A DNA stretch of 64,000 nucleotides from Escherichia coli (GTDB taxonomy: Bacteria; Pseudomonadota; Gammaproteobacteria; Enterobacterales; Enterobacteriaceae): the NCBI RefSeq assembly GCF_003790525.1, contig NZ_CP033635.1, one strand, 5' to 3'. Under the pieces are notes generated by a model. The model had not been told where the DNA came from. It worked only from the letters and a program-made list of their open reading frames with translations, and made no database searches. The first letter of the stretch is position 1; each line of letters opens with the position of its first letter. Both the position numbers and the translations under genes were made by a program. This document shows, piece after piece, positions 7,622 through 37,931 of the stretch.

Positions 7622-8584
7622 TTAATACAGTTTTTTCGCGCAGTCCAGCCAGTCGCCTTTGAACGGACGCTTCATGTTTTCGATAGCGTCGATGATGTCG
7701 TGGTGAACCAGCTGTTCGTTCTGGATACCTACGCAACGACCGCCGTAGCCTGCCAGCAGCAGATCGATAGCGTAAGCGCCCATACGGGAAGCCAGAATAC
7801 GGTCGTAAGGCACCGGAGAACCACCGCGCTGGATGTGGCCCAGCACAGTTGCGCGGGTTTCACGACCGGTTTCTTTCTCGATGAAATGCGCCAGTTCGTC
7901 AACATCACACATATGTTCGGTAATCGCCACGATCGCGTGTTTTTTACCTTTCGCGATACCCGCTTTGATTTCGTTTACCAGGTCTTCACGGCTGAATTCA
8001 ACTTCCGGAACTACAACGAATTCACAGCCACCAGCAATAGCCGCAGCCAACGTCAGATCGCCACAATAACGACCCATCACTTCCACCACGGAAATACGCT
8101 GGTGAGAAGAAGAGGTGTCACGCAGACGGTCGATCGCTTCTACAACGGTGCTCAGCGCAGTGAAGAAACCGATAGTGTAGTCAGTGCCTTTGATGTCGTT
8201 GTCGATAGTGCCCGGCAGGCCGATGCACGGGAAGCCCATTTCGGTCAGACGCATTGCACCCATGTAGGAACCGTCACCGCCGATAACCACCAGCGCATCG
8301 ATCCCACGTTTTTTCAGGTTTTCGATAGCCACGGCGCGGATGTTCTCGTCGCGGAATTCCGGGAAACGCGCAGAACCGAGGAACGTACCGCCACGGTTGA
8401 TCATGTCAGAAACGCTGTAACGGTCTAGCTGTACCATACGGTCTTCATACAGACCCAGATAGCCGTCATAAATGCCCATTACTTCCAGACCTTCTGTCAG
8501 CGCAGAACGAACAACCCCGCGAATTGCGGCGTTCATGCCTGGCGCATCACCGCCGCTTGTCAACACACCGATTTTCTTAATCAT
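7622..8584 (-). CDS. pfkA: 6-phosphofructokinase I
   Basis: 320 aa from [26 protein letters not shown]...; ORF-track start at 8680 is an extension. Confidence 0.95.
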
Positions 8585-8764
8585 GACTACCTCTGAACTT
8601 TGGAATGCAAAATGAAATCTGTTGCCGGAAGTCTTCTTGCACATCGAAGTGATCCAACGAATGTGCAAATAGTATAACAATCACTTCCTGCTGAATTGAT
8701 TCAGGTCAGGCCAAATGGCGGTATTTTATACACAAAATGCGGGTCTGGCTCTCTTTTATACTGA

Positions 8765-9667
8765 TTATGAAAGCATAGACCGTTTACCCTCCCTGGGTAC
8801 GACGGAACAGGGGTCCTGATGGATAATCACATCCGATCCCGGAAAACGCCGTAAAATAGCCTGCTCTACCTGATCCGCCACCATATGTGCCTGAACCAAA
8901 GGCAGAGAGTCTTCCATTTCCAAATGAATCTGAATAAAGCGGGTCGGCCCTGACTGCCGCGTGCGAAGATCGTGAGCGCCGCTAACACCCGGCCAGGAAG
9001 TCACGATATCAATAATTTCTTGCCGTTCTTCATCAGGCAATGCGCGATCCAGTAATGACTGTACCGCCTCATATCCCATGCGTAACGCGCTATATAAAAT
9101 ATAGATGCCGATTCCCAATGCAAACAGAGCATCGGCGCGATGCCAGCCGTACCAGGACAACCCCAGCGCCAGCAGAATTGCGCCGTTCATCATAACATCA
9201 GACTGGTAATGTAGCATATCAGCCCGCACCGCCTGGCTTTGCGTCCGGCGCACCACCCACCGCTGAAACGAGACAAGGATAATCGTACAAATTAGCGCCA
9301 CAATTGTCACGATAACCCCGACGCCTGGATCTGTCATCGGTGTTGGAGATACCAGATGTTGAATACCCGTCAAAAACAGGAATAGTGCCGAACCGGAGAT
9401 AAACATACTTTGCGCCAGCGCCGCGAGGGACTCAGCTTTACCGTGACCAAACGAGTGATTATCGTCGGCAGGTTGCAGGGAATATCGCACCACCAGTAAA
9501 TTCGTCAACGACGCGCCGATATCCACCAGCGAATCCACCAGCGCGGCGAGAATACTCACCGACCCGGTATACCACCATGCAAAAATTTTAATCAGCAATA
9601 GCAGCGAAGCCATCGCCGTCGCAGCAATCGCCGCCCGACTGACCAGCCGTCCATAAGATTGATTCAT
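8765..9667 (-). CDS. fieF: Cation-efflux (Fe/Zn) transporter, CDF family
   Basis: 300 aa from [32 protein letters not shown]...; CDF membrane domain plus C-terminal cytoplasmic domain. Confidence 0.9.
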
Positions 9668-9745
9668 AAATACTCCCGCTATCAACTGACGGTAGTATAA
9701 CGGAAGCAAATCATCTGCAATGCATTAAGCAGCAAGCAAATTGAG

Positions 9746-9792
9746 GATAAAAAAAACCCCCACATCATGTGGGGGAAGACAGGGATGGTGTC
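9746..9792. repeat. attL core (prophage-left copy of the cpxP-terminator repeat)
   Basis: gataaaaaaaacccccacatcatgtgggggaagacagggatggtgtc, identical over 47 bp to 44747..44793. Confidence 0.85.
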
Positions 9793-9891: not shown

Positions 9892-11317
9892 TAATGCCGA
9901 TCAGTTAAGGATCAGTTGACCGATCCAGTGGCTGTGTAAGAATCCGGAAACGCTCACTTGTTTCCGGATTTTTTTATGCACATTGGACAGGCTCTTGATC
10001 TGGTATCCCGTTACGATTCTCTGCGTAACCCACTGACTTCTCTGGGGGATTACCTCGACCCCGAACTCATCTCTCGTTGCCTTGCCGAATCAGGTACTGT
10101 AACGCTACGCAAGCGCCGTCTTCCCCTCGAAATGATGGTCTGGTGTATTGTTGGCATGGCGCTTGAGCGTAAAGAACCTCTTCACCAGATTGTGAATCGC
10201 CTGGACATCATGCTGCCGGGCAATCGCCCCTTCGTTGCCCCCAGTGCCGTTATTCAGGCCCGCCAGCGCCTGGGAAGTGAGGCTGTCCGCCGCGTGTTCA
10301 CGAAAACAGCGCAGCTCTGGCATAACGCCACGCCGCATCCGCACTGGTGCGGCCTGACCCTGCTGGCCATCGATGGTGTGTTCTGGCGCACACCGGATAC
10401 ACCAGAGAACGATGCAGCCTTCCCCCGCCAGACACATGCCGGGAACCCGGCGCTCTACCCGCAGGTCAAAATGGTCTGCCAGATGGAACTGACCAGCCAT
10501 CTGCTGACGGCTGCAGCCTTCGGCACGATGAAGAACAGCGAAAATGAGCTTGCTGAGCAACTTATAGAACAAACCGGCGATAACACTCTGACGTTAATGG
10601 ATAAAGGTTATTACTCACTGGGACTGTTAAATGCCTGGAGCCTGGCGGGAGAACACCGCCACTGGATGATACCTCTCAGAAAGGGAGCGCAATATGAAGA
10701 GATCAGAAAACTGGGTAAAGGCGATCATCTGGTGAAGCTGAAAACCAGCCCGCAGGCACGAAAAAAGTGGCCGGGACTGGGAAATGAAGTGACAGCCCGC
10801 CTGCTGACCGTGACGCGCAAAGGAAAAGTCTGCCATCTGCTGACGTCGATGACGGACGCCATGCGCTTCCCCGGAGGAGAAATGGCGGATCTGTACAGTC
10901 ATCGCTGGGAAATCGAACTGGGATACAGGGAGATAAAACAGACGATGCAACTGAGCAGGCTGACGCTGAGAAGTAAAAAACCGGAGCTTGTGGAGCAAGA
11001 GCTGTGGGGTGTCTTACTGGCTTATAATCTGGTGAGATATCAGATGATTAAAATGGCGGAATATCTGAAAGGTTACTGGCCGAATCAACTGAGTTTCTCA
11101 GAATCATGTGGAATGGTGATGAGAATGCTGATGACATTGCAGGGCGCTTCACCGGGACGTATACCGGAGCTGATGCGCGATCTTGCAAGTATGGGACAAC
11201 TTGTGAAATTACCGACAAGAAGGGAAAGGGCCTTCCCGAGAGTGGTAAAGGAGAGGCCCTGGAAATACCCCACAGCCCCGAAAAAGAGCCAGTCAGTTGC
11301 TTAACTGACTGGCATTA
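9892..11317 (+). mobile_element. IS4 insertion sequence (1426 bp)
   Basis: Terminal inverted repeats taatgccgatcagttaagg / ccttaactgactggcatta (imperfect); flanked by a 13-bp direct duplication ctcaactgagggg at 9879..9891 and 11318..11330; single transposase ORF. Confidence 0.9.
9976..11304 (+). CDS. insG: IS4 transposase (DDE family)
   Basis: 442 aa from ATG 9976 ([40 protein letters not shown]...); ORF-track start at 9958 is a TTG extension. Confidence 0.9.
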
Positions 11318-11342: not shown

Positions 11343-11561
11343 TCACATCCACATAATTTGCTGCCCTGACGGCAACGGGTGCGGCCTCACGGCGTGGACT
11401 TCTCCCGGCTTCACGATGTATCTCTGTACCGACTCATAAGTGATGAACGTGGCGCTGCAATTCACGTTCTGGCACTGGTGATAACGCTCTTTTGTCGTGT
11501 CAGTGATATAGCGGCTTGTACGCGCATGTGCGGCATGCTGGCATAAAGGACAATGAAACAT
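11343..11561 (-). CDS. ogr: Late-gene transcription activator Ogr (zinc finger)
   Basis: 72 aa, MFHCPLCQHAAHARTSRYITDTTKERYHQCQNVNCSATF...; four-Cys zinc finger; P2 Ogr length. Confidence 0.9.
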   Translation of the reverse strand: MFHCPLCQHAAHARTSRYITDTTKERYHQCQNVNCSATFITYESVQRYIVKPGEVHAVRPHPLPSGQQIMWM

Positions 11562-18264: not shown

Positions 18265-19164
18265 TCAAAGAATTAGCACTTGCTCTTCACTAGAAACTAT
18301 GGTTCTGACTTCACGCTCAAATATTGGATCCATTATCATTTTTCTATTTGTTGGAATAGTAAATTTACCGAGTACCATGACAATGCTACTCAACGGAAAT
18401 AATTTTGGAGTAACATTTCCTAATTGAATCGTAGGATATATATTAAAGCCCCCTTTTATCCTCATTGGCGAACCTTCAATGAAGTGTCGATAATTAAATT
18501 TCGCCATAGGGATTCTCGCCACATGCACTTTCATAATTACAGCAACCTGAGCTATTTTTACTTTCTGGAGGTAAGTTGACAATCGTTCTAACTGCGTTGT
18601 TTCATAGAAAAAATCAGACCACGTTACAGTACTTGTTCCAGTAACAATTTTTATGCTGTTTCTCTTGTTGGGGTGAGCTTTTCCATATTCATAGATCTCC
18701 CGTAAGCTATCCATGTTCTTCACATAAGGGGCTTTCCGACCTCTCTTGACATAAACGCGGTCTGTAGTATCAGAAGGTGGATTTGCCTGCATAGCTGCAG
18801 CTTTTCTGCTTAATTTAGAGATATCATCTTCATCGAGTATATGTATACGGAATATATTATTACCTGTGGCAAGCGCACGGCTGATATCATGACTGGAATC
18901 ACTTGCATAAATTGTATTCAATCCTGAAGTTCCATACTGGCATAATTTGTCATGCGTGAAATTTTTTTCCAGTCTAAAGAAGGCGGGGATATGCAAGGTT
19001 TTATTAAAACTCCGACGAATATGGCTTTTGACATACACCAAATGAGCAGAGCAATTTGGGTCAGGACATTTGAGTGGATAGGGATTAACACTATAATTAA
19101 AAGTATTTACATTTACTAAAATCTGATTGTTATCAATAGCCTGAGTTATACGAATACCACTCAT
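18265..19164 (-). CDS. Hypothetical protein at the Z/fun variable locus between G and FI (candidate anti-phage cargo)
   Basis: 299 aa ORF with GGAGG 5 nt upstream of the ATG; AT-rich relative to flanking tail genes; no family recognised by eye (contains CPDPNC). Confidence 0.6.
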   Translation of the reverse strand: MSGIRITQAIDNNQILVNVNTFNYSVNPYPLKCPDPNCSAHLVYVKSHIRRSFNKTLHIPAFFRLEKNFTHDKLCQYGTSGLNTIYASDSSHDISRALATGNNIFRIHILDEDDISKLSRKAAAMQANPPSDTTDRVYVKRGRKAPYVKNMDSLREIYEYGKAHPNKRNSIKIVTGTSTVTWSDFFYETTQLERLSTYLQKVKIAQVAVIMKVHVARIPMAKFNYRHFIEGSPMRIKGGFNIYPTIQLGNVTPKLFPLSSIVMVLGKFTIPTNRKMIMDPIFEREVRTIVSSEEQVLIL

Positions 19165-19908: not shown

Positions 19909-21930
19909 TTAAACGCTCGCTACATTATACCAGGTGCCATTTATATACTTTTGAACGGGTCTGTAATAAACGCCCGCTATATTATCGGCAGAGTTGGACC
20001 CTGTATCCTGAACATTAATACCAGACAATACATGACCTGACGGGCACTGGAAATTCCATGTTTGCCAGTTGTTCACTCCATAATATTGCTGTGACCCAAG
20101 TCGAACATCTTTCACATATCTGGAATCAAAATTGCCATAGTTGCCAGGAATAACTTGCGAGCCACAAAGCCAGTTACCGTTATTATCCATGTACGCCTGA
20201 CCATCGGTGCCATTGGCTGTCCTTGAGTTATTAATCATGTAGATGCCAAATTGCTTGTTCCCCAGTCCACCTATCATGAACTTGCGGTCAGCGTGATTCT
20301 GGCGAAGCAACGCCTGAGCGCTATCAGTGTTAACTATATTTTTCCCAAAGATAGCGTTGTTATCGCGCATCTGAATCCACATACCATTACTGCTGTTAAT
20401 AGCAAAACGGTCTGAAAGCGTCTCCCCTGAAACATTAAGGCCACGCCCCATCGAAACAGCGCCAGTAGCGTTATTAATCCATAATGGCCTTAATCCGTTA
20501 TAAGTCCCCATGTTGTCACCGGAGTTTGTCAACATGAAGTATGTATTTGAACCATCATTACGAATAAAGAATCCGTAATTACCATAAGCAATACGTAGGC
20601 CGTTTGCTGATTTTGATATGACTTCGCCATTTACAATGGCATTGACAAGAACATACAAAGCATCCCATTTAAGATTCATCAGGTCTTTTGTTGTAGTACT
20701 CTGGCGGCTTCTCCATTTGAAATATTCATTGCCGTTATCCCCCGTTTCAAACCACATGAATGAATCAGTGTCACCATCGGCATCATTTTTAAATCCAATC
20801 TTCGCCCAGTCAGTATTTCGAATCCAGGCAAGGATTGAGTCGTTTTCAAAAGTAAGTCCACCGGACAAGGTATCGCCATTTTTTTGCACGGCGTTCCCGG
20901 CTCGGTTTACCGTTTCCTGTAAACCGAGATATTCGATAACGGCGGCAACGGTCGATTTAGCCAGAATATCCCGCCCGACTTTTGTCAGGGTTGCCAAGCT
21001 GGCAACATCATTCCCAATAAAATACGGAAACCTGTCTGCCGCAGTAGCAAGCCCCGCCAGTGCCGTCAGGGTGGCATCTTTCGGTTGCTTACCCGCAAGC
21101 GCATTAGTCATGGTGGTAGCAAAATTCGGGTCATTGCCCAGCGCCGCCGCCAGCTCGTTCAGCGTATTCAGTGCGTCAGGCGACGAGTCTACAAGGGCGG
21201 CAATCGCGGCCATAACGAAAGCCGTGTTTGCGATCTGAGTATTATTCGTTCCCTGTCGCGCAGTTGGCGTCGTTGGCGTTCCGGTCAGTGCAGGGCTGTT
21301 TAATGGCGCTTTCTTGTTCGTTTCATCCATTACCGTCTTAACGGCTTTCGGCGTTGCAGCCAGTGTTTCAGACGTGCTGTTGGTCGCACTGCTTAACTGA
21401 GTAAAACCTTTTGCGGTCAGCGAGGCGTCAGGGTGACGTCGTGACTGTTCATGTTCTGCAATTTTGTCATCAACGTAATCCTGCGTCGCCATCACCGTTG
21501 TGGTGTCGATGGTCAGATCCACTGAGGCTACACTGCTGACGATAATGACCATGCGGCAGGTCTGCGAACGTCCTGAGCCTTCGGCAAGGGCTGGCTTATA
21601 ACTTTCGGCCATGTTCGCCACGGCAATTAACGTTCCCGCATCATCGTACAGGCCAAGCTCACGCATCCAGAAACCGCCCACCTCCGGCGGAATAACCAGC
21701 TCTGCGATAATATAATTACTGTTTCGTTTGTCCTGGCTGATTTTGTTCAGCGCATGTCGCCAGACTTCGTGGATAAGCCCGGTCTGTCCGGCATCCGGGA
21801 CAGGCAATTTACCACCGCCATCCCCGACGGCCATCGTGGTAATGTTGACCTTCCGCCCTCCCGGCGCGGTTGCCGCTGCCAGCTTTGCTGCACCGGCAGT
21901 GGTGATAACGGTTTTGAATTTTGTGCTCAT
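19909..21930 (-). CDS. H: Tail fibre protein H
   Basis: 673 aa (P2 gpH is 669 aa); conserved N-terminal region, Asn/Gly-rich C-terminal receptor-binding part. Confidence 0.85.
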
Positions 21931-23376: not shown

Positions 23377-23724
23377 TCAACTCACAGGGATGGTTAACGA
23401 AAGTGGCTGGCCGGTGTCGTTGTGCTGACCGGTTAACGTGACCGTCATTCGCCCGTCAAAACTGCGCGCCGTGGTGACGGATGACAGGGTGACGCGGGGT
23501 TCCCATTTCAGCACTGCCATGTAACAGGCGACCTTAATCTGCAACTCAAGCGCCGGGGTCTGCGGCTGGTCAATCATTGACGCCAGCAACGAGCCGTAAT
23601 CACGACGCATCACCCGTGAGCCGACGGGGGTACGCAGGATATCGCCGATACTCTGGCTGATATGCTCAAGGTCAGTGACAGTCAGGCCATCACTGCGATT
23701 CATTCCGAGATAACGCGCAGTCAT
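23377..23724 (-). CDS. W: Baseplate protein W
   Basis: 115 aa, P2 gpW length and position. Confidence 0.85.
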   Translation of the reverse strand: MTARYLGMNRSDGLTVTDLEHISQSIGDILRTPVGSRVMRRDYGSLLASMIDQPQTPALELQIKVACYMAVLKWEPRVTLSSVTTARSFDGRMTVTLTGQHNDTGQPLSLTIPVS

Positions 23725-24356
23725 AGAGGTCCCCCGGTTGTGCCGCCGCTGTCGCCGGGGTGTTTATGGGTATGCAGTACCTTACCGTTTGATGAGAGCT
23801 CACCGCCGGTGTGTTCAATGTTGCCGCGCATCGTCCCGCCCTTCTGCACTTCCAGCGTGCCGGTAATCAGCCTGTTGGTGCAGACCACCTCCGGTGTGTC
23901 CAGGGTGATGCGGGTTGATGCTTTCACCATGACCACCGGCACCGTGGCAGTAACAGAATCAGAAGCCGTCACGCTGGCCGTTTTAACTCCGCTTACCGTG
24001 AGCGCGCTGGTTTCAGGTTCATACTCAATCACCGCCCCGTCAGGGAAACGGATATGCAGGGCATCCGCCGACGCAGACGGCGCGGGGTTATCGCCGGAAT
24101 AAATCCCCGGCAGAACGAACGCCGTGTCGAGTTCACCACCCACGGCCAGAATCAGCACCTGTTCCCCCACGGAAGGTGCCCACCATGTGCGCGAACGCCC
24201 GGCGCGATGGGTCAGCCACTGAAGCCAGTCGGTGCACATGCCGCCGGTCTGCACACGGCAGCGACCGGCATTAAGGTCGGTTTCGACGATAATGCCGGTG
24301 CGGATCATGTTGCGCAGTGCGCGCGCGAGTTCCTGAATATTTGCGAGAGTGTTCAT
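23721..24356 (-). CDS. V: Baseplate spike protein V
   Basis: 211 aa from MNTLANIQELARALRNMIRTGIIVETDLNAGRCRV...; P2 gpV length. Confidence 0.85.
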   Translation of the reverse strand: MNTLANIQELARALRNMIRTGIIVETDLNAGRCRVQTGGMCTDWLQWLTHRAGRSRTWWAPSVGEQVLILAVGGELDTAFVLPGIYSGDNPAPSASADALHIRFPDGAVIEYEPETSALTVSGVKTASVTASDSVTATVPVVMVKASTRITLDTPEVVCTNRLITGTLEVQKGGTMRGNIEHTGGELSSNGKVLHTHKHPGDSGGTTGGPL

Positions 24357-24439
24357 GCGTGTGAGATTGCACAATATATAAAAGTTATGCTATCTGGATT
24401 CATTTGTAGAACGACCATACAACATTCGAGGAGAGCGTA

Positions 24440-25225
24440 ATGTTCAGTGATAATGTGACTAATGCGTGGTGGTTTATCTCTTTGTATCTATTTTTATTAA
24501 TAGCATTAACATTTGTTACCTTTGGTAAAAGTAATCTTATGAGGTTTATTGCACATCATTTCAATCTTGAGTATTCAGACAGAAAGTTAAAAATGCTCGA
24601 CAAAAAATGGCGCGACATTCAACTATTTAAAATAATTAACGGAATCAATGTATCAGGCATCGAAGATGTGAGAATGATACAGCAGGGGCTGATTGATGGA
24701 AAACTAAAAACATCGTATTTTTTCCTTACTCGCTTCTGGGGTGACATAACAAAACCACCACACATAATTAAAACAACAATTGTAATTCTGGCCAGTATTA
24801 TTTATATTCTCTTCGCATGTTATATACACAATGAACAATCCGCTATAGTAAGGGATGCCATAGGTATACCATATAAAAATATGATGTACTATGTTTATAG
24901 TGACAAAGTTCTTTTATCCTTCAAAAATAAAACGGTTGAATTTAATAAAACTTATAGCCTTGCCGATTGCAAGAGTCTGCAAAACGTATTTATAAAAGAC
25001 ACACTTCCCGAGATCGCCTGCAATAAGCTCTTACAGCTAAACAAGGAGGACTCCGAATGGTTAAGTCAGGAGATTAAAGATAATAACAGCCACAGAAAAA
25101 CATTATTAATAATATCCCTAACCTATTTCATTTCAGGTCTGCTTATATTCCTGTCATATACAAAATTCCTTTACGCCAATAAGAAGGTTTTAGAATACAA
25201 AGCATCAAATAAAAACCACTCATAA
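24440..25225 (+). CDS. Hypothetical membrane protein at the orf30 position, opposite strand to the tail genes
   Basis: 261 aa, very AT-rich, about three predicted TM helices (WWFISLYLFLLIALTFVTF; TIVILASIIYILFACYI; LLIISLTYFISGLLIFLSY). Confidence 0.6.
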   Translation: MFSDNVTNAWWFISLYLFLLIALTFVTFGKSNLMRFIAHHFNLEYSDRKLKMLDKKWRDIQLFKIINGINVSGIEDVRMIQQGLIDGKLKTSYFFLTRFWGDITKPPHIIKTTIVILASIIYILFACYIHNEQSAIVRDAIGIPYKNMMYYVYSDKVLLSFKNKTVEFNKTYSLADCKSLQNVFIKDTLPEIACNKLLQLNKEDSEWLSQEIKDNNSHRKTLLIISLTYFISGLLIFLSYTKFLYANKKVLEYKASNKNHS

Positions 25226-25296
25226 ACCTCTAAATATTGAGCGACCAGCACGGCCGCTCAATGCTTAATTGCGCATCAGCCTCTGCCTTGATAAAA

Positions 25297-25749
25297 CTAA
25301 CGCTCAAGGTGAGCCAGGATAATCTCTTCAATCATCTGCACATCCTCACCGGTAAAGCCGAGCAGAGGACGCGCCGGATAATCAATTTTCTTACCGTCTT
25401 TCCGGTTTTCTTCCGACAGACCGAACTGATGCACACTGGCGATTTTCGGTGACTTCCCGCCGTAAAACTCCATTGATGCCTGTTCCGGGCTGGCGCGGAT
25501 ATGCAAAAAACGACTGGTGATAAGTTTCGCAAACATTTTTCGCTTAACACGACCGGTCTTTTTTCTGGCGCTCTGCTGCTGGCGTGGCGCGTAGGGTGTG
25601 CCGTCCGGAGCTTTCTGTGCCATCACCCGACGCTGCTGACTCTGCCGCAGGCGTTTCGCCAGTTCGGCACTCAGTCGCCGACGCCCTGACGGTGACAGCG
25701 ATTCAATCAGTCCGGTCAGCCGGTCTTCAAAACGCTTAAACTCATTCAT
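25297..25749 (-). CDS. S: Tail completion protein S
   Basis: 150 aa, P2 gpS length and position. Confidence 0.85.
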   Translation of the reverse strand: MNEFKRFEDRLTGLIESLSPSGRRRLSAELAKRLRQSQQRRVMAQKAPDGTPYAPRQQQSARKKTGRVKRKMFAKLITSRFLHIRASPEQASMEFYGGKSPKIASVHQFGLSEENRKDGKKIDYPARPLLGFTGEDVQMIEEIILAHLER

Positions 25750-26209
25750 CCCACTTGCTCACCAGTTCGCCATTGATATACAGCTCCATCGGGCGGGTGA
25801 CCGGCTCCGGCGGCGGAGGTTCCGGGATATTCTTCACATGCAGCGCGCCGTCCACCTCACTGACCAGCGTGCGCTCGGTCAGCATCAGGCTGATACTGAT
25901 ATCAAAGCTGCTGTCATTGTTGATGTCCGCATAAAACGTGAAGCCCTTTTTCTGGCCTGCGTCGGTGGTCATGATGTCGGGCTGATTTTCCCGCAGCCAC
26001 GCCAGCACCGGCACGATGAGCAGGTCAAAATCACCGGTAAAGTCGGTCACAATGACATTGAGCGTGTAACGCTTTTCAAATGACAGCGACCTCGCCAGTG
26101 TGGAGGCAATACTCCCGTTATCCACGAATATCCGCAGCATCTCGGGACTGGTTTTCAGCACCGTGACAGCATCAGTCAGCGCCCTGCGCAGGCTGTCGGG
26201 TTTGAGCAT
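25742..26209 (-). CDS. R: Tail completion protein R
   Basis: 155 aa, P2 gpR length and position. Confidence 0.85.
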   Translation of the reverse strand: MLKPDSLRRALTDAVTVLKTSPEMLRIFVDNGSIASTLARSLSFEKRYTLNVIVTDFTGDFDLLIVPVLAWLRENQPDIMTTDAGQKKGFTFYADINNDSSFDISISLMLTERTLVSEVDGALHVKNIPEPPPPEPVTRPMELYINGELVSKWDE

Positions 26210-34892: not shown

Positions 34893-35966
34893 ATGGATAA
34901 CAAAATCGTAGAAATTGAGACAAATAAGCTTGATTTTGACCCTAAAAACCCACGTTTCTTTCGTCTCAATGATGCCAGTAACGCTGCAACAGTCATTGAG
35001 GAAATGTTAGATGACGAAAGTGTCCACGATCTAATGCTATCAATCGGTCAGCAAGGTTACTTTCCTGGAGAACCTTTATTGGCAGTAAAAAGCAATGGAA
35101 ACTACATCGTGGTTGAGGGAAACAGACGCTTAGCTGCTGTAAAGTTGCTCAATGGAGATCTGCTTCCTCCAAAAAGAAAACTTAAAGGTGTGCAAGAAAT
35201 CATTGATGATACTACCAATAAACCTAAGAAGCTTCCCTGCATCATTTATGAAAACCGAGAGGATGTACTGAGATATATCGGTTATCGTCATATAACTGGG
35301 GTCAAAGAATGGGACTCATTATCTAAAGCCAAATACCTTAAAGAGTTATGTGATACTTTTTATTCACATGAGCCTAAAGAGATAGTATTAAAAAATCTGG
35401 CTCGTGAGATTGGGAGTAAACCACATTATGTTGCAACACTTCTCACTGCACTGAACTTATATGAAGTCGCGCATGACCATGAGTTTTTTAATTTACCCAT
35501 GAAGGCTTCTGACGTGGAATTTTCATATATAACCACAGCTTTGGGATATTCAAAAATCACAAACTGGTTAGGTCTACAGGATAAAAAGGATTTTTTAGAC
35601 CCAAATTTAAATGAAGAAAACCTTAAGCGTTTATTCTCTTGGTTTTTTGTGCCTGACCAACAAGGTAGAACCATCATCGGTGAGTCTCGAAGAATAAAAG
35701 ATATTGCAGCAGTGGTTGAGAAACCCGAAGCAATTGAAATTCTCATGAAAAGTTCAAACTTGGATGAAGCATATCTATATACCAGCGGAGAAAGAGAAGC
35801 ATTAGATAAAGCACTAAACGCAGCTAGTGTTAAATTAAGAGTAGTTTGGGATATGCTACTTAAAGCTAAAGAATTAACATTAGAGCATGAAGAGGCTGCA
35901 TCTGAAATTTTTGAGATGTCAAAAAATATTAGAAATCAGATCAGAAGCAAAAGGGAGGATGATTGA
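34893..35966 (+). CDS. ParB/Srx-like N-terminal domain protein (cargo gene 1 at the old/tin position)
   Basis: 357 aa from ATG 34893 (RBS gagg upstream); ParB-box-like motifs LDFDPKNPRF and IVVEGNRRLAAVKLL; AT-rich. Confidence 0.7.
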   Translation: MDNKIVEIETNKLDFDPKNPRFFRLNDASNAATVIEEMLDDESVHDLMLSIGQQGYFPGEPLLAVKSNGNYIVVEGNRRLAAVKLLNGDLLPPKRKLKGVQEIIDDTTNKPKKLPCIIYENREDVLRYIGYRHITGVKEWDSLSKAKYLKELCDTFYSHEPKEIVLKNLAREIGSKPHYVATLLTALNLYEVAHDHEFFNLPMKASDVEFSYITTALGYSKITNWLGLQDKKDFLDPNLNEENLKRLFSWFFVPDQQGRTIIGESRRIKDIAAVVEKPEAIEILMKSSNLDEAYLYTSGEREALDKALNAASVKLRVVWDMLLKAKELTLEHEEAASEIFEMSKNIRNQIRSKREDD

Positions 35967-35970
35967 GATT

Positions 35971-36996
35971 ATGATTACAAATCTTGATTCAATGCCTTCT
36001 AATGAGCCTTATTTATGGGCTGATTATATTGAGATATTGGCCTTAACTAATATCGACAGGTCATTCAGTCGAGGAGACCTATATAGCACACTGCAAGCTC
36101 AACCCGAAGCAGTACTAGCTGAAACAGATGAAGCAGAAGAAGAGGGCGTTTATGATGTTGATGATGAAAATGATACGCCTGTACGCAAGAGAACAAAACG
36201 AAGTGTTAGTCGAGCATATACTGACAGAAAGTGGAGCTATGCGATAGGCTTCATACGACAACGCATTGATTTATTTGGGGATAGTTACCCTTTTACTTTA
36301 TCAGAAGACAACGATACTGTAGAGTTACGTGATATATCAGAAAAGCCACTGGAACATTTAGAAAGACTATATTTAGCTTTACTAATCTGTGCTAACATAA
36401 AATATGTCAACATAATGAGCAGAAGAGAGATAACGCGCAGTTTTGAACTAATTAGTTTACCTATTTTTGAAAGCCTAATGCCTAGCGGTAGCATAATAAA
36501 AGCATGCTGGGCTTCTGGTGGTCAAGCGGCCCCTTACACTGGAACTCTATATAATAAATTTAAGAGTATTGCTTCCGATATCCGTTGCACAGCGAACTTC
36601 AAAGAACGAGATTTCAGTCGAGGAAATAGTGGTGACGGAGGCCTTGACATAATTGCCTGGCATCCAATGGGAGATCAACGAGATGCCATCCCTATTTCTT
36701 TTGTTCAGTGTGGCTGTTCTCAAGAAGAGTGGGAAGCGAAGCAGCTTGAGGCCTCACCTGCGATGCTCTACAGTAAATTCCCCGTAGCTCACCGATGGGC
36801 AACTTATTATTTCTTACCTCAAGATCTACGATGGATAGATGGTGAGTGGGCGCATAAAAATAAGTTAGGCGATGCTATTTTTGTTGATCGCCTAAGATTA
36901 ATCAATTTAACCAGAGCATCTGATAATATTGATCACAGTCAAAATATTAGCTATCTAGATATCATCCTTGATCCTTCCAGCGCGATCGCTGCTTAA
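35971..36996 (+). CDS. Hypothetical protein, possible PD-(D/E)xK-type nuclease (cargo gene 2)
   Basis: 341 aa; starts 4 nt after gene 1 (alternative ATG 35959 overlaps its stop); contains GDGGLDIIAW ... ISFVQCGCSQEEWEAK, resembling an Mrr-type catalytic core but lacking the canonical QCK lysine. Confidence 0.6.
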   Translation: MITNLDSMPSNEPYLWADYIEILALTNIDRSFSRGDLYSTLQAQPEAVLAETDEAEEEGVYDVDDENDTPVRKRTKRSVSRAYTDRKWSYAIGFIRQRIDLFGDSYPFTLSEDNDTVELRDISEKPLEHLERLYLALLICANIKYVNIMSRREITRSFELISLPIFESLMPSGSIIKACWASGGQAAPYTGTLYNKFKSIASDIRCTANFKERDFSRGNSGDGGLDIIAWHPMGDQRDAIPISFVQCGCSQEEWEAKQLEASPAMLYSKFPVAHRWATYYFLPQDLRWIDGEWAHKNKLGDAIFVDRLRLINLTRASDNIDHSQNISYLDIILDPSSAIAA

Positions 36997-37931
36997 TCCC
37001 ATAAATCTGGAAGGTTTCTAGCAACCGCCTCAAACAATGGAGGCGGTACTGCATTACCTACCACAGTATATTTCATATTAATAGAAGCCCGTTCAGTTTC
37101 TGGGAAAATTAAATCCCCAAAACCTTGTAAAATAGCAGCCTCTCGATAGCTAAACCTACGAGCTGGTGCATCCGAAGTAAATTGCCACTTATCAGGTCCC
37201 AATTTTTCTAATGTTGGACTTATTGGATGTAGAGGCATATGTCTAGGATTTGCAACAATTGTTTTAGATATCTGATCCCAATCTTGCCTACGGTTTCGCG
37301 ATAGATAATACCAATGAAAATCGGCGTCATAAAACTCGCCAACAGGCCAAACAGGCATATGCCCAATAGCATCACGAATTGTGGAATATGGTGTCAAACC
37401 ATCACCATGTGTTGGTTTTGGAAATTTGTATGTAATACCGTAGTCCTTTCGTATTCCTACGATAAAGATTCGCTTCCTATCTTGGGATACCCCATAATGG
37501 GACGCATTCAGAATTTGCGAGCTTACTGTATAACCTGCTTCTTCGAAAACTTTGAATTGATCCTTTAATAAATGCTCAAAGTTACGCCTTACCATACCAG
37601 AGACATTCTCTACAATGAATGCTTTTGGCTTAATTTTACTCAAAGCACGGGCAAACTCTAAATATAGTGTATTAATCTTTCTATCTGCCTTCCTTGCCCC
37701 ACCTTGACTAAATCCTTGGCAAGGATAGCATCCGATGAGCAACTCAGCAGAAGGGAACGACTGGAGCCCTGAGATATCGCCCAAAATGTAGTCAGTTTCA
37801 GGATGGTTTTCTAAGTAAACGTCCCTTGCGTAAGGCAAAATATCATTTGCCATAAGCACATTGAAACCTGCGTTCAAAACTCCCGCATCAGAACCACCAC
37901 ATCCAGAAAAAAGTGAAACTACAGTTGGCAT
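36993..37931 (-). CDS. DNA cytosine-5 methyltransferase, HaeIII/HhaI-type small m5C MTase (cargo gene 3)
   Basis: 312 aa with motif I FSGCGG, motif IV PCQGFS, motif VI ENV, motif VIII QDRKR, motif X GNAVPPPL, plus YYLSRNRRQDW resembling the M.HaeIII variable region; convergent with gene 2 (4-bp overlap). Confidence 0.85.
   Translation of the reverse strand: MPTVVSLFSGCGGSDAGVLNAGFNVLMANDILPYARDVYLENHPETDYILGDISGLQSFPSAELLIGCYPCQGFSQGGARKADRKINTLYLEFARALSKIKPKAFIVENVSGMVRRNFEHLLKDQFKVFEEAGYTVSSQILNASHYGVSQDRKRIFIVGIRKDYGITYKFPKPTHGDGLTPYSTIRDAIGHMPVWPVGEFYDADFHWYYLSRNRRQDWDQISKTIVANPRHMPLHPISPTLEKLGPDKWQFTSDAPARRFSYREAAILQGFGDLIFPETERASINMKYTVVGNAVPPPLFEAVARNLPDLWD

Follow-up and report, generated by a model that had tools for sequence, protein, structure and literature searches.

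The window analysed here is a 64 000-nucleotide (nt) stretch of Escherichia coli DNA (NCBI RefSeq assembly GCF_003790525.1, contig NZ_CP033635.1), and our subject within it is orf30, a gene for a predicted membrane protein of 261 amino acids (aa) that lies between genes V and S of a P2-like prophage. The prophage sits between fieF and cpxP, at window positions ~11.3–44.6 kb. The window is collinear with E. coli SMS-3-5 over 41 kb, all 83 of the 40-mers sampled from it fall at a single offset in the SMS-3-5 chromosome, and nucleotide identity to that strain across the locus is 99.9%. The gene forms a single-gene cassette where two late operons meet: it is read from the opposite strand and is set between the O-operon terminator and the PV promoter. 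Immediately upstream of R and S are the lysis genes. Features of the P2 record were mapped to the window with an offset of +22799. For V we used the P2-annotated ATG; the mechanical open reading frame (ORF) list reaches a TTG at 24374. The locus reads as follows.

23721..24356, minus strand: gene V (baseplate spike), left flank and first gene of the PV late operon, from the P2-annotated ATG mapped onto the window
24357..24439, strand not applicable: V–orf30 spacer with the PV late promoter and its Ogr activator site, transferred from the P2 record
24398-24425, minus strand: Ogr activator site of the PV late promoter, a P2 feature mapped onto the window
24429-24434, plus strand: Shine-Dalgarno sequence GAGGAG, read from the sequence, 5 nt upstream of the orf30 ATG
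24440..25225, plus strand: orf30 coding sequence, ATG start, 261 aa plus stop, from the ORF list
25235..25263, strand not applicable: GC-rich hairpin 10 nt 3′ of the orf30 stop, the P2-annotated rho-independent terminator of the O operon (which maps to 25231-25267)
25297..25749, minus strand: gene S (tail completion), right flank and last gene of the O operon, from the ORF list

The V-to-orf30 spacer is 83 bp measured from the V ATG (65 bp from the extended V ORF) and the orf30-to-S spacer is 71 bp, in agreement with the original prediction, made from the sequence and an ORF list, of a gene antisense between V and S with more than 60 bp on each side. The strongly AT-rich segment that it described is equally plain, GC content being 0.32–0.36 across 24350-25250 compared with 0.54–0.63 in the flanks. 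Within orf30 the GC content is 0.327 and that of third codon positions (GC3) is 0.35; GC3 is 0.68 in V and 0.57 in S.

The PV transcription start, transferred from the P2 record, maps to the V ATG. The orf30 start codon lies 14 nt past the P2-annotated Ogr site and 19 nt past its TGT...ACA dyad, and any promoter of orf30 must overlap the PV spacer or sit inside V. Among six alleles the spacer is 98% conserved, and the GGAG core of the Shine-Dalgarno sequence is kept in all six that were aligned. On the other side, the hairpin folds on both strands, at −16.3 kcal/mol (z −1.9) and −23.4 kcal/mol (z −1.65), the z-scores being modest; a simple terminator scan made no call on it, and a search of Rfam gave no RNA family within 23500-26000. 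It is a candidate terminator in both directions, serving S and orf30, whose transcripts converge.

A 1051-bp region of the window is 92.4% identical in nucleotides to bacteriophage P2 (AF063097), whose record annotates the ORF as orf30, ‘nonessential’. By BLASTP the window protein is 84% identical to P2 Orf30 (AAD03281.1) over 261 of 261 residues (E = 4e-167), and PHROG 2407, a family of unknown function, matches it end to end (profile positions 1–261, E = 3.8e-142). The neighbouring W, V, S and R proteins are 97–100% identical between P2 and the window (gpV 97%, gpS 99%). The gene was placed at the orf30 position of P2 by the original prediction, and the match goes further than position, because the feature is an allele of P2 orf30 with the same neighbours and orientation; it is an orthologue and not a new gene, and the object was therefore already known. 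What is new here is the family-level picture drawn below.

Orf30 function is listed as ‘unknown’ in the literature searched, as the original prediction also had it, and the papers describe three regions of P2-like phages that hold foreign genes: the right-end TO region (the old/tin hotspot), the Z region and the orf30 site. In R18C another ORF is reported at the orf30 site. Recent hotspot and defence surveys name neither the S–V site nor orf30 in the portions of their text that were searched.

Hydropathy in 19-residue Kyte–Doolittle windows gives three peaks of 2.1–2.4, above the threshold of 2.0, at residues ~10–28, 109–129 and 221–240, and net charges of −1 for the N-terminus, +6 for loop 29–107, 0 for loop 130–219 and +3 for the tail. 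Because this charge distribution follows the positive-inside rule, the protein is predicted to cross the inner membrane three times with its N-terminus outside and its C-terminus inside. An AlphaFold2 (AF2) model built with the family alignment is confident (predicted local distance difference test, pLDDT, 84.2; predicted template modelling score, pTM, 0.72), and its helices 4–28, 109–133 and 202–260 reproduce the hydropathic transmembrane (TM) segments, so the 261-aa ORF with about three TM helices that had been proposed holds up in ORF list, hydropathy and model alike. The strongest family motif, D-x-Q-L-F-[KR]-x-x-N-G-I-N-V ... D-A ... G, falls in the predicted cytoplasmic loop. Residues G68, G87, C194 and I212 are invariant in the family alignment, K254 is nearly so, and G29, Q61 and D76 are conserved at ≥90%. 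Both Cys177, present in 22 of 25 members, and the invariant Cys194 lie in the domain between TM2 and TM3, and this pattern of conservation suggests that they may form a periplasmic disulfide. That domain is predicted to be rich in beta structure and is more variable than the cytoplasmic one.

Selection was measured on eight alleles, namely that of the window, those of six phage records (four coliphages and two phages isolated on Yersinia pestis) and that of one more E. coli prophage. All eight are intact at 261 codons, and their proteins diverge by up to 24%. Near-identity across P2-like phages, which the original prediction had named as an argument against its suggestion of phage exclusion or abortive infection, is thus not what we found, and the divergence stands beside V, W and S proteins that are 97–100% identical between window and P2. 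The window protein differs from P2 Orf30 at 41 of 261 residues, 16 of them among the first 28. The mean ratio of nonsynonymous to synonymous substitution rates (dN/dS) is 0.46 for orf30, 0.13 for V and 0.08 for S. By segment, with window coordinates on the plus strand, the protein divides as follows.

24467..24523, plus strand: TM1, aa 10–28, the most variable segment among alleles, from hydropathy and charge; dN/dS 1.22 for the N-terminus with TM1
24524..24763, plus strand: predicted cytoplasmic helical domain, aa 29–108, charge +6, with AF2 helices 30–40, 48–67 and 74–86; dN/dS 0.40 for the cytoplasmic loop
24764..24826, plus strand: TM2, aa 109–129, from hydropathy and the AF2 model; dN/dS 0.59
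24827..25099, plus strand: predicted periplasmic domain, aa 130–220, four beta strands plus helices, from charge, alignment and AF2; dN/dS 0.29
25100..25222, plus strand: TM3, aa 221–241, and basic cytoplasmic tail, aa 242–261, within one long model helix 202–260; dN/dS 0.84 for TM3 and 0.21 for the tail

Pooled ratios of nonsynonymous to synonymous polymorphism (pN/pS) are 0.9–1.2 in the TM segments and 0.26–0.45 in the soluble parts; of the four pairs, one alone shows a significant contrast (Fisher p = 0.02). Purifying selection on the soluble domains is clear, and Orf30 is therefore a functional protein; the TM helices are almost neutral, and the data fit equally well their being loose anchors or carriers of specificity. 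Since the eight alleles are intact with a dN/dS of 0.46 and homologues reach down to ~20% identity, orf30 is a real coding gene and not a chance ORF.

An exhaustive HMMER search of 1.84 billion representative proteins gave only 40 matches, of which ~20 are full-length at 21–34% identity. Homologues of 250–270 aa persist to ~20% identity with length and topology conserved; truncated fragments of the family are also present in the databases. The named members come from Escherichia, Enterobacter, Yersinia, Gibbsiella, Sodalis, Dickeya, Rahnella and Serratia, with others from metagenomes; word-indexed protein searches with alignments added few members only, in Dickeya, Rahnella and Serratia. An alignment scan of species-representative genomes with the P2 clade returned two contigs only, both from metagenome-assembled genomes. 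A 9.7-kb contig binned as Collinsella sp. (L030) carries an orf30 that is 99% identical to the window's, and most likely represents mis-binned coliphage or E. coli DNA.

Beyond the family itself, Foldseek against AFDB50 listed family members and then many uncharacterised proteobacterial proteins of 250–310 aa at TM-scores of ~0.45–0.6, including proteins of Pseudomonas, Xanthomonas and Burkholderiales. DUF6216 (PF19723) matches 3 of 25 members at E ≤ 1e-3 (best 1.3e-5) and 6 of 25 at E ≤ 0.1; member P0089 reaches E = 2.1, P0030 has a faint precomputed match, and the window protein gives no match at E ≤ 10. The UniRef cluster of P0089 is named SLATT 2TM effector. An identity as SLATT was rejected, as neither Pfam SLATT_1-5 nor NCBIfam gave a match for the window protein, P0089 or any of the 25 aligned members.

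Genomic context was examined for 12 lineages, the window's own clade included, and in nine of them the gene lies antisense at the S–V site of a P2-like prophage. The contexts are these.

Antisense between V and S: the P2 clade, L003, L016, L012-14 (Yersinia), L015 (Gibbsiella), L028 (Rahnella), L033 (Sodalis), L032, L035 (Serratia)
L025 7530-9777: Orf30-like gene in a small AT-rich chromosomal islet between rplS and aroF
L027: lone gene between yegQ and yegS in the Enterobacter cloacae chromosome
L009-L011: short contigs with an Orf30-like gene beside dsbA

The relatives at the S–V site are 20–34% identical and include one in an Enterobacter-type phage. In the compared loci Orf30 is 23–32% identical to the window protein and gpV is 59–84% identical. 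Because relatives this distant hold the same site in the same orientation and are equally AT-rich, the gene family is an old, fast-evolving resident of the S–V site. Every member examined has a GC content of 0.32–0.38 and GC3 of 0.26–0.40, between flanks of 0.45–0.58 GC. Low GC is a maintained family trait and no proof of recent import, since low GC3 is common to all members, irrespective of host and of how far they have diverged; for the same reason recent horizontal acquisition was rejected as a sufficient cause of the low GC. The suggestion that orf30 looks horizontally acquired stands only in part, for the literature does name the site as one for horizontally acquired genes, but the family is old there and its low GC is maintained. 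Next to the site, gpS of L003 and L012 is ~47–49% identical to that of the window even though gpV is ~83% and gpR ~78% identical, a difference which suggests that two deeply split S allele types may adjoin the cargo site.

Several copies have outlived the prophage around them. A Serratia rubidaea remnant (L035 3272-5021) has shrunk to ogr and V, a 49-aa stump of S and an Orf30-like gene for 253 aa that is still intact. A remnant in a metagenomic assembly (L032) holds tandem paralogues at 8102-8872 and 9001-9759, only 26% identical to each other, between V and S. The lone yegQ–yegS copy belongs to a 90% cluster of 36 members, each on dozens of contigs; in E. coli K-12 the same site holds the ogrK P2 remnant. 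In the rplS–aroF islet a 215-aa CAP12/PCTIR TIR-like protein is encoded ~820 bp upstream with an intervening ORF, and a GNAT acetyltransferase lies downstream.

The cassette is also gained and lost. Among 5426 complete E. coli genomes the junction was matched in 1556, and 458 of these (~29%) carry the full orf30, which is thus present in roughly 8% of complete E. coli genomes. Of 40 rows sampled down the ranking, 24 represent an empty junction, in which the two flank matches span 177 bp of the record; in a few others the flanks have diverged or different cargo is present. In Wphi the spacer differs throughout, similarity to the window ending at the ATG of V on one side and ~8 bp after the stop codon of S on the other. 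In its presence or absence among close relatives at one site, combined with deviant base composition, orf30 resembles a moron, an independent cassette of a phage late region, and it is a candidate for one. Other cargo at this site includes an AT-rich (GC 0.35) gene of E. coli S10 (L024 1864-2907) for a 347-aa protein with two C-terminal TM helices, antisense at S–V, for which neither Pfam nor PADLOC gave a match; phiCTX orf15, which is soluble and on the late strand; and, in Gibbsiella greigii (L015 8877-10214), a 445-aa DUF4062 protein whose late-strand gene separates the Orf30-like gene from S, likewise with no PADLOC match. The S10 protein and phiCTX orf15 were each considered as hidden relatives of Orf30 and rejected at an hhalign probability <1%.

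orf30 is non-essential for the phage and is retained intact when the surrounding prophage decays. A non-essential lone cassette that survives decay and can stack divergent paralogues is therefore best seen as a partnerless gene that pays its way in the lysogen or host, and since intact copies outlive prophage decay, orf30 probably helps the host. Rapid divergence with gain and loss points to a conflict-like setting, and the other S–V cargo, including the S10 membrane protein and the Gibbsiella DUF4062 protein, is a context consistent with defence, as is the TIR-like gene ~820 bp from one chromosomal member. Phage exclusion is the known role of old, tin and fun (Z), the three further AT-rich genes that P2 can do without, and this raises the prior for exclusion. 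We therefore tentatively favour a reading of Orf30 as a self-sufficient inner-membrane protein that benefits the lysogen by envelope-level exclusion. The role in superinfection exclusion or abortive infection that the original prediction guessed at is a reasonable one and may well be the most plausible. It would act alone from the inner membrane of the lysogen, for host and prophage both; its periplasmic domain, its TM helices or both would contact some part of a phage, or of a phage-tail-like or pore-forming bacteriocin, that is on its way through that membrane and so block entry, with allele variation and stacked paralogues setting specificity. In a more specific form, which we regard as rather doubtful when taken as a whole, the Orf30 family would be an unrecognised single-gene class of inner-membrane immunity co-evolving with contractile-tail P2-like phages. 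The targets recognised by its variable TM helices and periplasmic domain would be proteins of incoming P2-like phages (or of R-type tailocins), namely those of the membrane-inserting tip, the tape measure or ejection, and recognition would keep a channel from forming. The conserved cytoplasmic domain would anchor or regulate this, the range of what is excluded would depend on the diversity of alleles and on tandem copies, and the maintained AT-richness would keep the gene under H-NS-type control.

A role for Orf30 in the physiology of the host rather than against phages is a possibility we take seriously but consider unlikely. As a lysogenic-conversion factor it might alter stress signalling, envelope homeostasis, colonisation or resistance to serum; one way would be for its TM helices and cytoplasmic domain to bind a membrane sensor of the host. 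The domesticated lone and remnant copies kept in Enterobacter cloacae and Serratia chromosomes would fit such a role, as would the conserved cytoplasmic motif and the wider cellular membrane-protein family suggested by the weak DUF6216 link and the Foldseek matches; rapid divergence, presence/absence polymorphism and paralogue stacking are, however, more typical of conflict genes, and no known host-interaction domain was found in our searches. It is rather improbable that Orf30 is an abortive-infection effector, which would take an infection cue through its cytoplasmic domain, oligomerise, depolarise or permeabilise the inner membrane and kill the cell, by a logic like that of RexB, SLATT or Cap15. 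Its several membrane passes and the conservation of its cytoplasmic domain would suit that role, and both the SLATT label on the P0089 cluster and the TIR-like gene near one chromosomal member hint at it. The label was, however, not reproduced by Pfam or NCBIfam on any member scanned, and the TIR-like gene is found in a single lineage, at the distance given above and beyond another ORF. When genes of the SMODS or SLOG signal-generating type were looked for near Orf30, the neighbours at the S–V site proved to be tail genes only, no sensor or signal partner being found there, and the lone and remnant copies have no conserved neighbour.

An accessory role in the phage life cycle seems quite unlikely. 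The protein could act in lytic growth, on lysis timing, in guarding the membrane of the producing cell or in DNA ejection, or else transcription of orf30 could modulate the overlapping PV late promoter and read-through from the O operon; such a role is suggested by the closeness of the orf30 start to the Ogr site, by the conserved spacer and the convergence of orf30 on S across a shared hairpin, and by the lysis genes just upstream of R and S. Yet most P2-like prophages lack orf30, although their V and S are nearly the same; the gene stays intact in remnants that have lost late genes; the P2 record calls it nonessential; and PV itself accounts for the conservation of the spacer. That orf30 is a decaying or selfish AT-rich insert with no function at all is very improbable. 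No phenotype is reported for it in the literature searched, truncated fragments occur in databases and no promoter was found; against this stand the eight intact alleles out of eight with soluble-domain dN/dS well below 1, the length and topology conserved to 20% identity, the confident fold prediction and the retention of the gene in remnants.

Envelope-level exclusion, the reading that we prefer, has a number of results weighing against it. The searches for known families gave it no support: the window protein drew no family from PADLOC-DB 2.0 at E ≤ 1, and of five more members run through PADLOC four had no match and P0045 had only a noise-level match to HamA (E = 0.0067); PHROG 2407 was the sole significant match in PHROGs, none with a function being returned; Pfam and NCBIfam gave nothing above noise for the window protein; a viral structure library gave no match at E ≤ 0.001, and the Protein Data Bank (PDB) generic helical matches only. 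No function is assigned to orf30 in the literature searched, where accession and name matches were to unrelated ORF30s only. In the parts of their text that were searched, two large experimental screens of P2-like prophage cargo make no mention of the orf30 locus, and this silence argues weakly against broad protection from T4, lambda-vir and T7. No sigma-70-like promoter was found on the plus strand upstream of orf30, nor a convincing one upstream of three homologues, and the spacer is filled by PV. The near-neutral TM helices may be mere anchors, and the best-conserved part of the protein is cytoplasmic, for which a pure periplasmic blocker would have no need.

Elsewhere in the prophage, at its fieF-side end, an IS4-family transposase gene (9958-11304) abuts ogrK (11343-11561), by coordinates from the SMS-3-5 annotation. 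At 18265-19164, on the minus strand, a 299-aa hypothetical protein is encoded between the tail sheath and tail-fibre assembly genes, the position of the P2 Z/fun hotspot. At the same position Yersinia L012 and L014 (2161-3412) carry a cupin-like gene and a PAS/GerE (LuxR-type) regulator that are absent from the near-identical L013. A second GC dip (0.39–0.47), weaker than that of orf30, spans 20000-21000, taking in the tail-fibre gene towards its 3′ end and the boundary with the tail-fibre assembly gene. The cargo of the TO hotspot (34893-37931) comprises a protein with a ParB N-terminal domain, an overlapping hypothetical protein and, on the opposite strand, a DNA cytosine methyltransferase.

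Very few genes of the textbook phage P2 still lack a function, and orf30 is one of them; research into P2-like prophages has meanwhile contributed to finding many defence systems. As a deep family fixed at one site, present in that ~8% of complete E. coli genomes and intact in decayed prophages, orf30 is a candidate for an envelope-level function in defence or conversion, and its natural alleles and stacked paralogues are ready material for specificity mapping. Should a phenotype be absent, orf30 stays an ordinary, already catalogued hypothetical gene.

The closest known system is P2 Orf30 itself, which has the same length (261 aa), S–V position, orientation and hairpin position, the window allele differing mostly near the N-terminus. 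DUF6216, which some Orf30 relatives match and the window protein does not, is a domain without known function and adds no mechanism. The old, tin and fun (Z) genes resemble orf30 in being non-essential single-gene cargo of P2. Their exclusion targets have been described, and none of the three products is known to be membrane-embedded; Orf30, by comparison, is a three-pass protein without a known target, and the recent surveys, in the portions of text searched, do not count its S–V site as a P2 defence hotspot. The superinfection-exclusion proteins T4 Imm, P22 SieA, HK97 gp15 and lactococcal Sie2009 are small, are encoded by a resident or previously infecting phage, and act alone in the cytoplasmic membrane to block genome entry by later phages. 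Orf30 shares their single-gene, membrane, prophage-borne layout, but is larger, has its best-conserved domain in the cytoplasm by prediction, and showed no similarity in sequence or structure to them, or to Ltp or Cor/Llp, in PHROGs or the viral structure library. The immunity proteins of pore-forming colicins have three to four TM helices in the inner membrane, are encoded antisense beside the colicin gene and carry their specificity in the TM helices. Orf30 departs from them in its two sizeable soluble domains, in having no toxin partner at the locus and no Pfam relationship, so the likeness is one of analogy only: Orf30 too is encoded antisense and has three predicted TM helices, and these helices are its fastest-evolving parts.

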